Origin: Candidatus Fermentithermobacillaceae bacterium
Lineage (GTDB): Bacteria; Bacillota; Sulfobacillia; Fermentithermobacillales; DUSS01
Assembly: GCA_020725645.1 (NCBI GenBank)
Contig: DYEQ01000029.1
Span: 43,109-107,108 of the forward strand
Direction of reading: 5' to 3'
Length of the DNA: 64,000 bases
A model generated the notes under the pieces. That model had not been told where the DNA came from. It did not search any database and worked only from the letters and a program-made list of their open reading frames with translations. Below are positions 6,812 to 54,502 of the stretch, one piece after another. Both the position numbers and the translations under genes were made by a program. Within the stretch, counting starts at the first letter, position 1, and the number at the start of each line of letters is the position of its first letter.

Positions 6812-7056
6812 GATCACTTTTTTCGATCACTTTTTTGAGAAGAAGGAATCTGGTAGGGTTATGTCGAATGGAGGACCTTGCCAAGGAATATATACCGCGT
6901 TACCGATAAAGGCAAACCCGTCGAAAGGCGGGGACGCAAAGCTGCGGGTCTAAAGCCGTAAGGCCATGATAGCCGGGCTGCCGAAGAACGGGGTTACTTA
7001 TTATTTAGCCTCCTGCGGTAACGCGGGGGGCTTTTGTCGTCCAGGGGGGATGACAG

Positions 7057-41421: not shown

Positions 41422-42009
41422 TTAAGCGTCGCTCGGGCAGGCCGTCTGTCTCAACCTGAACAACGGGTCGGATACGGACTTGATGAGATAGACCGAGACG
41501 GGCACCTCCAGGACGAAAGAGATGATCCTAGGGGGAATGAGTACCGGCCAGGGTAATCCGAAGAGGGAATGGAGGAAATAGGGCGTCAACCCCAGAGAGA
41601 CGGTCAGCTGTCCGGCCATGACGGACAGGACCGTGGCCCAGACCTCCAGCTTTTCCCCGCGCTCTTTGCGGAGAAACCGGTAGACGGCACCGGGGATAAA
41701 ACCGGCCAAAGCTGCCGTAACCGTGAAGTGGGGCATATAAGGACCCATCGGGCTTAAGAAAAAGCCCGCCACGTCGGCGACGGCCCCCGAAACGGCGCCT
41801 GCGACCGGAGAAATCACGAACCCTGCGATGATATTGGGGATCCTCCCGAAACCGATCCTGATCCCTTCAATCCCTCCGATAGCTACCCTTATCGAAGCAT
41901 ATCTGGTAAGCACCACGGACAATGCTGCCGTCATAGCGACGAAGGCGACGTCTCGTACCCGGTGGCGGCCCGGGGATTCGCGCGTAGGCTTTTCACCGTA
42001 GCGTGTCAT
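41422..42009 (-). CDS. ECF transporter S component (substrate-capture subunit, vitamin/folate-type)
   Basis: Small six-transmembrane protein of the ECF-S type. ATG 42009 is preceded by GAGAGGAGGA; the ORF as listed extends to 42084. Confidence 0.6.
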   Translation of the reverse strand: MTRYGEKPTRESPGRHRVRDVAFVAMTAALSVVLTRYASIRVAIGGIEGIRIGFGRIPNIIAGFVISPVAGAVSGAVADVAGFFLSPMGPYMPHFTVTAALAGFIPGAVYRFLRKERGEKLEVWATVLSVMAGQLTVSLGLTPYFLHSLFGLPWPVLIPPRIISFVLEVPVSVYLIKSVSDPLFRLRQTACPSDA

Positions 42010-42712
42010 GCGTGTCCTCCTCTCGCGGCTGGAAACCTGGTTGCCGGCGCGCCCAAAAGACACAAGCTCCGGGGCTACCGGCAAATAACCCGCCTTTCAC
42101 TGTACATCAGCTGACGTCCGAAGCCAAGATGCCACGGGACAGCTGCGACGGATAGGAGATTCCCCCGACCTTTCCAACGGGTGGCACTTGCGAACTCTAA
42201 ATGCGGGGTGGTAAGATCGTGTTGCCGAAAGGCACCTTTCCCTGCTGTGTGCGTGGGTCACGGTGAGCTTGAGCCAACACCGTTGACAAGGGAGCCTGGG
42301 CTCCGTTGCGTGGCGTGCAGGCCTCCTGGTCCTGCAGGAGGAAGCACATAAGCCGCGGGAGGGCACCCACCTGCGAGAGCGGGTTCAACGTCCTCCGAGA
42401 TTCACGGCACGGCGGGGATTTATAGCGCGGTCCCACAAGGTCGTCCTCCATCCTCCCGCTTTGGTGCCTCTGCGACTTCGGAAATGTGAGCTTCGTAATC
42501 CTCAGCCCCGATATGAAACACCGGCATATCCGAATTTCCGCAGGAATTAGCTTCCGGGCAGCCTGTAGGTACGGCTTCACGTCGAATCGAATGCTATTTG
42601 CTGGTGGTGCTCAAGACAAGAATGAAGCCTTCAGATCGTGAAACCTTTCGGCGGCTCCGTTGTATAGGTCAGATGGAAGAAGGTCAATGAACACCTAAAA
42701 GGAGGTTCCGCT

Positions 42713-43090
42713 ATGGATCTTCAAGAAATGCTGGGTCAAGTCACTTCCAGACTGGAGCAGTTTATATCCACAAAAACGGTGGTAGGGGAGCCCATAACCA
42801 TCGGGAACGTTTCGATCGTACCCCTTCAAACGGCGAGCTTCGGATTCGGTTCCGGCGGTGGTGAAGGGAAGACCGCCAACAACACCGGGACCGGCGGCGG
42901 CGCCGGCGCAGGAGCGAGCTTACGTCCTGTAGCTCTCGTAGTGGTTAAGGGCGACGACGTAAAGGTGTACGGGCTCGGGCGCAAAGGAATGCTCGAGGCC
43001 CTCATCGACCTGATACCCGAGGCGGTCTGCAAAGCTAAGCAGACGGTGAAAGAGCGGGAAAGCTCACCTGGCGAAGCCGAGAATAGCTAA
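42713..43090 (+). CDS. ytfJ: Sporulation protein YtfJ/GerW family
   Basis: 125 aa with VVGEPITIGNVSIVPLQTASFGFGSGGGEG...LRPVALVVVKGDDVKVYGL, the GerW/YtfJ signature; AAAGGAGG RBS. Confidence 0.8.
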   Translation: MDLQEMLGQVTSRLEQFISTKTVVGEPITIGNVSIVPLQTASFGFGSGGGEGKTANNTGTGGGAGAGASLRPVALVVVKGDDVKVYGLGRKGMLEALIDLIPEAVCKAKQTVKERESSPGEAENS

Positions 43091-43639
43091 TAGGGGATTA
43101 CCCAGGAGGGACACCGTCGGCGAGCCAACGGGGGGAGGAGGCACCGTTCCCGGAGACCAGATTGACTTCGAAACGCCCTGTCTCAAGCTCAAGTTCTCAG
43201 TTTCGTATAAGTTTTTTACGAGGCCGGATAGGGAGGCCGAATACTTGCCCGCGGTCGTCCCTCACCACTTGTTTCAGCCAGACGCTGGAAGACTACCGGA
43301 AAGGCGAAGACACGGTTTTAAACTGGTTGATTCAGCACCACCGTGACCTCTAGGTCCGCTAGAGGCCGGCCGCCGTATCCGGGGAGGAATGTTCGATTGC
43401 TGACAGTGTTCATTCTGACGAAAAGCATGACCGAACAATGAGCTTCCAGCCGAACAGTACCCGGGAGGTGCAGGACAAACCGACATGGAACTGTACTCAA
43501 AGCCGTATCCAAAACTAGTGATGAGAGCCTCGCTGGGCCTGTTAGCGGACCCCGGTTCCACCTGTATCGTCGGGAGACGGCAGAAGCGGTTGGCCTGCAG
43601 CGTACATACGGAGAAGGGTGAGTCAGGGTCTATTCCCCA

Positions 43640-44251
43640 TTGGACTGGAGTGGAATCGTGGAGGAAATAGACGGTGAGACCCTGCGGCGATGCGTCCGTG
43701 GCGATGAGGAAGCGTTGAGGAAGCTCTTCCGGGCGTACGAGCGCTATGTCTATGCCCTATGCTTCGGGTTTACGCAGGATCGGGAAGAAGCTTTGGACTT
43801 GTGCCAGGAATCTTTCGTCCGGGTTTTTCGGGGGCTCAAGGATTTCGATTTAAACCGGCCTCTCAAACCGTGGATCCGCCGGGTAACCATCAATGTGTGT
43901 ATCAATTATGGCCGGAAAAAGGAAAGGTACCCGCAAACTGTGAGTCTCCAGGCGAATTTCGAGGGAAATCCGAACCTGGAGCTTCCTCCGCCTTTCCGAG
44001 GTATATCGCGGGATGTGAACCCCGAAAGGCACGTTGAACTTCGCGAGACCATGGAAGAGGTGCGTGAAGCTCTGCGGGAACTTCCGCCCGAGGAACGGTT
44101 AGCTTTGGTCTTGCGCCACCAAGAAGGCCTCAATTACGCGGAGATAGCGGCGGTAACGGGCTGGCCTCTCGGCACGGTTAAGACCCACCTCTACCGTGCA
44201 CGGCAATCATTGAAACAAAAGCTGGTTCATCTCCGGGGCGGTCCCCGGTAA
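43640..44251 (+). CDS. ECF-type RNA polymerase sigma-70 family factor
   Basis: Region 2 (ALCFGFTQDREEALDLCQESFVRVFRGL) and region 4 (LPPEERLALVLRHQEGLNYAEIAAVTGWPLGTVKTHLYRARQSLK). TTG 43640; GTG 43658 is the alternative start. Confidence 0.85.
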   Translation: MDWSGIVEEIDGETLRRCVRGDEEALRKLFRAYERYVYALCFGFTQDREEALDLCQESFVRVFRGLKDFDLNRPLKPWIRRVTINVCINYGRKKERYPQTVSLQANFEGNPNLELPPPFRGISRDVNPERHVELRETMEEVREALRELPPEERLALVLRHQEGLNYAEIAAVTGWPLGTVKTHLYRARQSLKQKLVHLRGGPR

Positions 44252-54415: not shown

Positions 54416-54502
54416 TGGTGCCGAAGGTGGGAGTTGAACCCACACAGGCGTAAGCCTACGGCGCCCTGAACACCGCGTGTCTGCCATTTCCACCACTTCG
54501 GC
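54416..54502 (-). tRNA. tRNA-Leu (anticodon CAG), class II with long variable arm, 3' CCA encoded
   Basis: On the minus strand: acceptor GCCGAAG/CUUCGGC, 3-bp D stem with an 11-nt D loop, anticodon stem CGGUG/CGCCG with loop UUCAGGG, variable arm UAGGCUUACGCCUGU, T arm GUGGG-UUCAACU-CCCAC, then ACCA. A TTGGCG-N17-TAGACT promoter sits about 10 nt upstream. Confidence 0.8.

Follow-up and report, generated by a model that had tools for sequence, protein, structure and literature searches.

The 703-nt non-coding gap between folT and ytfJ in this Candidatus Fermentithermobacillaceae genome almost certainly has, as its structured element, a canonical 6S/SsrS RNA gene located at 42236–42422 on the plus strand and reading from folT toward ytfJ (positions refer to the window, i.e. 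the whole 64,000-nt stretch of DNA that was analysed). The assignment to the 6S family is backed by sequence, structure, covariation and selection, and the gene is of an already known kind, which standard annotation would label as a 6S gene. The initial annotation had placed a structured RNA in this gap and was right as to the kind of element, but wrong about which strand it occupies, how long it is, where it begins and ends and how it relates to the transporter gene: instead of a minus-strand leader of the ECF S-component gene, about 430 nt in size, the RNA is a free-standing 187-nt 6S gene encoded on the plus strand, with its transcription leading away from folT. The coordinates of the features are collected in Table 1.

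Table 1. Features of the folT–ytfJ region, in order of position in the window. L002 and L003 are two closely related metagenome-assembled genomes (MAGs).
Feature	Position	Strand	Basis
folT, folate-family ECF transporter S component	41422–42009	−	TIGR04518, 121 bits (cut-off 60); PF07155, PF12822
folT upstream region, with possible promoter TTGGCT (42127–42122), 17-nt spacer, TACAGT (42104–42099)	42010–42127	−	By eye
Putative sigma-A promoter of the 6S gene: TTGCGA (42188–42193), 18-nt spacer, TGg-TAAGAT (−10 at 42212–42217)	42188–42217	+	By eye
GCC-GAAA-GGC mini-hairpin, after the putative −10 and before the start of the 6S model	42224–42233	+	Invariant in three relatives
6S (ssrS-type) RNA gene, covering the whole Rfam model	42236–42422	+	RF00013; fold z-score; relatives
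Closing stem, 5′ arm, pairs with 42404–42418	42239–42254	+	Rfam consensus; compensatory changes
Internal stem, 5′ arm (GCUUGAGCC), pairs with 42382–42391	42267–42275	+	Rfam consensus
Central bubble, 5′ strand, 14 nt (AACACCGUUGACAA)	42276–42289	+	Unpaired in the Rfam consensus alignment
Terminal stem-loop, apical loop at 42327–42336	42290–42368	+	Rfam consensus; holds both previously quoted hairpins
Central bubble, 3′ strand, 13 nt (ACCUGCGAGAGCG)	42369–42381	+	Rfam consensus
Closing stem, 3′ arm, pairs with 42239–42254	42404–42418	+	Rfam consensus; compensatory changes
Unconserved spacer after the 6S gene	42423–42640	+	About 50% identity, 98–106 gapped positions vs. L002 and L003
Conserved block upstream of ytfJ, with ribosome-binding site AAAGGAGG	42641–42712	+	85% and 69% identity to L002 and L003
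ytfJ/gerW-family sporulation protein gene	42713–43090	+	PF09579, 72.3 bits

The gap and its flanking genes

The gap (42010–42712) extends from the start of folT at 42009 on the minus strand, where the ATG is preceded 7 nt upstream by a GAGGAGG ribosome-binding site, to the start of ytfJ at 42713 on the plus strand. Against TIGR02874 the ytfJ product scored 69.8 bits, which is under the equivalog cut-off of 116.3. The earlier description of the gap as non-coding and devoid of a plausible ORF was confirmed over the 703 nt, as no Pfam match above noise was obtained for any of the five ORFs in 42010–42712 and indels with respect to the close relatives break their frames; protein coding in the gap was rejected on these grounds.

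The gap had also been described as rich in hairpins, which is true of the central 187 nt only (z −5.86), whereas the flanks fold at or below the level of shuffled sequences (z −0.26 and +1.84). The two hairpins quoted as examples are both present (GGAGCC-TGG-GCTCC at 42291–42304 and CCTCCTG-GTCCTG-CAGGAGG at 42322–42341), and both are located within the 6S gene. The remainder of the gap is probably ordinary intergenic DNA, with a divergently oriented promoter and a short leader on the folT side, a spacer that is not conserved after the 6S gene, and the promoter and ribosome-binding site of ytfJ at the far end.

Identification of the 6S RNA gene

Rfam 15 was scanned with the whole window at the gathering threshold and with both strands of 41900–42800 at a permissive E ≤ 10. 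The 6S model RF00013 matched the plus strand only, along its full length (model positions 1–187 of 187), scoring 98.6 bits, twice the gathering score of 46.4, with E-values of 1.4e-18 in the whole window and 2e-20 in the local scan. The comparison with Rfam by Infernal that the initial annotation had proposed as a check was in this way answered by a strong match, to a family that had not been considered there; the lack of any Rfam match, named there as a ground for refutation, did not occur. With the exception of a chance-level group II intron match of 12.3 bits, no other Rfam family was detected on either strand of 41900–42800 at E ≤ 10, and the ARAGORN search for tmRNA, also proposed earlier, found none in the gap. 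Neither were tmRNA, RNase P RNA or SRP RNA found anywhere in the window (ARAGORN; Rfam at the gathering threshold), and the covariance model described below matched the 64-kb window once, without a second 6S copy.

At the gathering threshold, the only Rfam families found in the whole window were 6S and the c-di-GMP-I-GGC riboswitch, whose aptamer (RF03167) is located at 6902–6986 on the plus strand (77.7 bits vs. a gathering score of 59). The only tRNA reported in the window by ARAGORN was a tRNA-Leu (CAG) at 54416–54502 on the minus strand.

The 6S gene, with a length of 187 nt, inside the range of about 180–200 nt expected for the family, and a GC content of 64%, was predicted to fold on its plus strand at −104.4 kcal/mol, much below its dinucleotide shuffles (z −5.86), compared to a z of −2.72 for the antisense strand. 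When its parts were mapped from the Rfam consensus structure onto the window sequence, the two ends paired into a long closing stem, a large central bubble with G-C pairs at both borders followed further in, and the terminal stem-loop lay beyond it; these features are the ones by which the family is defined (PMC4064990). The bubble is bordered on one side by the C-C/G-G end of the internal stem, which contributes two G-C pairs at the bubble edge, and on the other by GGG/CCC, with which the terminal stem begins. The hairpin quoted at 42322–42341 corresponds to the apical part of the terminal stem, and that at 42291–42304 is a local alternative inside the 5′ arm of the same stem. At the sequence level, the gene shares with the 6S family the blocks CCCUGC..GUG, UUGAGCCAACAC, GGGAGCC, GGGCACCCACCUG, GGUUCAA and ACGGCA..GCGGGG.

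A different structure had been proposed initially for this region, in which a large minus-strand RNA of about 430 nt would run from 42509 to 42071 and be closed by the pairing of GGGGCUG with UAGCCCC. Both 7-mers do exist at the positions given for them (GGGGCTA at 42071–42077 and CAGCCCC at 42503–42509, plus-strand letters), they can pair with one G-U, and the minimum-energy fold of the stretch uses them as its outer helix. However, this complementarity is one of about 90 equal 7-bp pairings with at most one G-U that can be drawn within the 703 nt (66 ± 11 in shuffles) and is at chance level, and the 439-nt minus-strand RNA (42071–42509) folds no better than its shuffles (z +0.12). Moreover, its 5′ arm (42503–42509) falls in an unconserved stretch that is largely absent from the relatives, its interior is the antisense of the 6S gene, which folds much better on the plus strand, and no Rfam family matched it. 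A minus-strand RNA of this size has practically no probability left and is effectively refuted; the closing helix of the 6S gene is instead the one between the two arms given in Table 1.

Covariation of the 6S helices

A retrieval pattern taken from the conserved 3′ half of the 6S gene yielded 120 metagenome loci. The three close 6S sequences and the Rfam-derived structure were combined into a covariance model, which gave 82 matches over its full length, with a single one in the window; covariation was evaluated on 63 distinct sequences. All 17 of the comparators that were sampled matched RF00013, with 67–121 bits and at the same coordinates. In the alignment of the 63 distinct sequences, which was fitted to the model, 93.9% of the cells were paired, compared with 81.2% in shuffled alignments and 37–48% when the partners were slid, and compensatory changes were detected at 31 of the 44 pairs; none of 500 shuffles attained any of the covariation measures. 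As the retrieval pattern covers part of helices 5 and 6, which are uninformative for this reason, the covariation evidence comes from helices 1–4 and 7–9, with compensatory changes at 14 of the 15 pairs of helices 1–3 and at every one of the 14 pairs of helices 7–9. The invariance of the 3′ arm of the internal stem is uninformative because this arm lies partly inside the pattern.

RNAalifold applied to a MAFFT alignment of 41 sequences recovered the core helices only, because the variable arms were misaligned, and therefore the model-based alignment was used. A small hairpin with a GAGA loop can form between the 3′ strand of the bubble and the beginning of the internal stem's 3′ arm; it was also obtained de novo by RNAalifold with the 41 sequences, most of its columns being fixed by the retrieval pattern. 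At two of the metagenomic loci, the 6S gene is preceded, at a distance of about 95 nt, by a tRNA gene of the same orientation (L028, 1579–1652; L099, 3717–3790), a context unlike that of the window.

Conservation of the gene and of its neighbourhood

Relatives were retrieved by a YtfJ search of contigs from one genome per species, which led to two Candidatus Fermentithermobacillaceae MAGs, L002 and L003. The order folT / 6S / ytfJ is kept in both of them, with FolT proteins 88% and 81% identical to that of the window, and their 6S genes scored 96.6 and 93.5 bits against RF00013. The identity of these 6S genes to that of the window was 98.9% (L002) and 95.7% (L003), compared to 58–76% at the third codon positions of folT and ytfJ, and the differences among the three close relatives were confined to the apical loop, the bubble and the 3′ tail. 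Purifying selection is thus much stronger on the 6S gene than on the sequences around it. A contig identical to that of the window occurs in SRR29635773.

In the more distant relatives L004 and L005, no 6S gene was found upstream of ytfJ; therefore, the adjacency of 6S and ytfJ is recent and narrow. In these two genomes, an ORF of about 305–309 amino acids on the same strand directly precedes ytfJ (L004, 3050–3979; L005, 3053–3970). A wider linkage of 6S with folT or ytfJ was also considered and rejected, as homologues of the folT, ytfJ or polC genes of the window were found near the 6S pattern match at none of 113 metagenomic loci.

Putative promoter and ends of the 6S transcript

A putative sigma-A promoter was recognised by eye upstream of the 6S gene, with 8 of 12 hexamer matches plus the TG, a degree of similarity that is below the threshold of the promoter scan, by which none of the putative 6S or folT promoters was reported. 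L002 and L003 have the same two hexamers and the same TG, and the stretch 42188–42235 is 94% and 83% identical to the relatives. From this putative conserved promoter, the 6S transcript would start near 42224 and carry a 12-nt leader with a GNRA hairpin. The mini-hairpin of this leader was predicted as a separate hairpin at both 37 and 60 °C, and the base that follows it (42235 or 42236) varies among the relatives. The hairpin may represent a short 5′ precursor leader of 6S. The 6S-1 RNA of B. subtilis also has a 5′-extended precursor (about 11 nt).

Regarding the 3′ end, the scan found no terminator-like site or intrinsic terminator between the 6S gene and ytfJ. Therefore, this end may be generated by processing, or else by weak termination at the closing stem, which is followed by UUUAU. 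Processing is the case in E. coli, whose primary 6S transcript extends into the next gene, ygfA, and ends inside it (PMC3299989).

The folT leader

Folate-family S-component genes are often preceded by THF riboswitches, and control of the S-component gene by a riboswitch had been suggested for this locus. A riboswitch, most plausibly of the THF type, could be supposed in the minus-strand 5′ leader of folT, where it would control expression of the transporter. The gene downstream is indeed a folate-family S component, and the 226 nt between folT and 6S (42010–42235) are 74–85% identical to the relatives (up to 94% at 42188–42235), somewhat above the identity at third codon positions. The possible promoter motifs of folT are conserved in L002 and L003 and would give a leader of about 80 nt, in which a GC-rich hairpin at approximately 42039–42079 (minus strand) is retained in the three relatives.

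However, no riboswitch model (THF, TPP, FMN, B12, preQ1 or others) of Rfam 15 matched either strand of 41900–42800 at E ≤ 10, and the minus strand of 42010–42235 folds at the level of its shuffles (z −0.26). The leader hairpin did not show covariation (the covariation term was +0.23, at the low power of three sequences), the candidate leader carries a 12–13-nt indel among the relatives, and no terminator-like site that could serve as an expression platform was found in the scan. Besides, two divergent promoters plausibly occupy more than half of the 226 nt, and the conserved structured core of the gap belongs to the plus-strand gene. What is shared with the known THF riboswitches (the THF and THF-II/folE families) is the context only, namely a folate S-component gene with a sizeable non-coding region upstream, and the differences are the lack of a model match, a leader that is not unusually structured and the location of the structured element on the other strand. 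Hence, riboswitch control of folT from this leader is judged very improbable, and the structured RNA next to folT is best read as the divergent 6S gene.

The spacer between 6S and ytfJ

The sequence that follows the 6S gene is conserved only close to ytfJ (Table 1). About 100 nt of 42423–42640 are absent from L002 and L003, and no repeats of this segment were found elsewhere in the window. A mobile or repeated element was also considered for the window-specific extra sequence and discarded, as no repeats were present in the window or in the fetched loci. The block adjacent to ytfJ is presumably its promoter and leader, and a G(T/C)ATA motif upstream of ytfJ is conserved out to L004 and L005. 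A comparison by eye with sigma-F and sigma-G consensus sequences gave no ground for assigning ytfJ a promoter of either type, as only G(T/C)ATA is conserved.

The absence of a terminator-like site between 6S and ytfJ, the processing of E. coli 6S from a transcript that reaches ygfA (PMC3299989) and the conservation of the last 72 nt before ytfJ could all be taken to mean that 6S and ytfJ form a single regulatory transcription unit, or that the 290 nt between them (42423–42712) encode a second, undescribed functional RNA or small protein. Against this, 42423–42640 is only about 50% identical to the relatives, which lack around 100 nt of it, the whole spacer folds worse than its shuffles (z +1.84), and its sole ORF (42486–42641) is not conserved and has no Pfam match. 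Also, ytfJ has no 6S gene upstream in L004 and L005. A second element or a single unit is consequently considered unlikely. Still somewhat fainter is the chance that 6S is co-transcribed with the forespore-type ytfJ or processed from its leader, by which the supply of 6S would be linked to sporulation, or that the 226 nt on the other side constitute an undescribed folate-transporter leader. The reading preferred here is a free-standing 6S gene followed by an unconserved spacer and by the upstream region of ytfJ.

A second long spacer of 549 nt (43091–43639) separates ytfJ from an ECF sigma-factor gene (43640–44251). Approximately 390 nt of it (roughly 43117–43508) are absent from L002 and L003, in which this gap measures about 160 nt. 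No Rfam match at E ≤ 5, no Pfam match for its ORFs, and no notable terminal repeats or other copies were found for 43091–43639. The extra sequence in both 42423–42640 and 43091–43639 suggests a lineage with expanded intergenic spacers.

Predicted fold of the free RNA and the pRNA template

6S RNAs bind the Eσ70 and EσA holoenzymes and are released by synthesis of a short product RNA (pRNA) (PMC3299989). By analogy, the RNA described here would mimic an open promoter and bind the RNA polymerase holoenzyme containing the housekeeping sigma-A, which it would sequester when growth slows; when nucleotides return, the polymerase would copy the 5′ strand of the bubble into pRNA, and 6S would be released. 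In the window gene, the template for the pRNA would be the 5′ bubble strand at 42276–42289, and the predicted pRNA would be expected to be complementary to CCAACACCGUUGAC. Synthesis of pRNA is not universal in the family, as B. subtilis 6S-2 does not make it efficiently (PMC3299989).

Due to its high GC content (64%), the free 6S RNA is predicted to shut the bubble into local hairpins, and this is the state of both bubble strands in the minimum-energy fold (−104.4 kcal/mol). An open-bubble rod is also feasible, with −89.6 kcal/mol, about 15 kcal/mol costlier by prediction, and the Rfam consensus structure imposed on the window sequence reached only −49.1 kcal/mol, with 6 of its 50 consensus pairs non-canonical. 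The segment GUCACGGUG (42257–42265) is complementary to the part CACCGUUGAC (42279–42288) of the 5′ bubble strand, both on the plus strand, and therefore the pRNA template is predicted to be masked in a hairpin in the free RNA. The GUCACGGUG segment is invariant in the three relatives and is thus uninformative as to covariation, and its pairing with CACCGUUGAC was not seen by eye in the few more distant 6S sequences that were aligned.

Comparison with known 6S loci and significance

In length and architecture, the window gene is similar to ssrS of E. coli and to 6S-1 (bsrA) and 6S-2 (bsrB) of B. subtilis, and it is distinguished from the known 6S RNAs by its richness in GC (64%) and by the possible 12-nt 5′ leader with a GNRA hairpin. 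As in the ssrS-ygfA locus of E. coli, the gene is free-standing and located upstream of a protein gene on the same strand, without a strong terminator (PMC3299989, PMC4064990); unlike there, its context is provided by the divergent folT and the downstream ytfJ in place of ygfA. In the proteobacterial ssrS-ygfA arrangement, 6S likewise lies beside a folate-related gene, as ygfA encodes 5-formyltetrahydrofolate cyclo-ligase (PMC4064990), but the folate gene of the window encodes a transporter component and is divergently transcribed. The pairing of 6S with folT appears to be confined to Candidatus Fermentithermobacillaceae, and its resemblance to ssrS-ygfA is most likely a coincidence.

The main value of the finding is the correct annotation of the gap, which does not merit further pursuit as the site of a new riboswitch or large RNA. 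Neither the folT gene of the window, which is without any known folate riboswitch, nor the presence of 6S would surprise a specialist, and the gene adds a 6S sequence for an uncultivated thermophilic family of the Bacillota.
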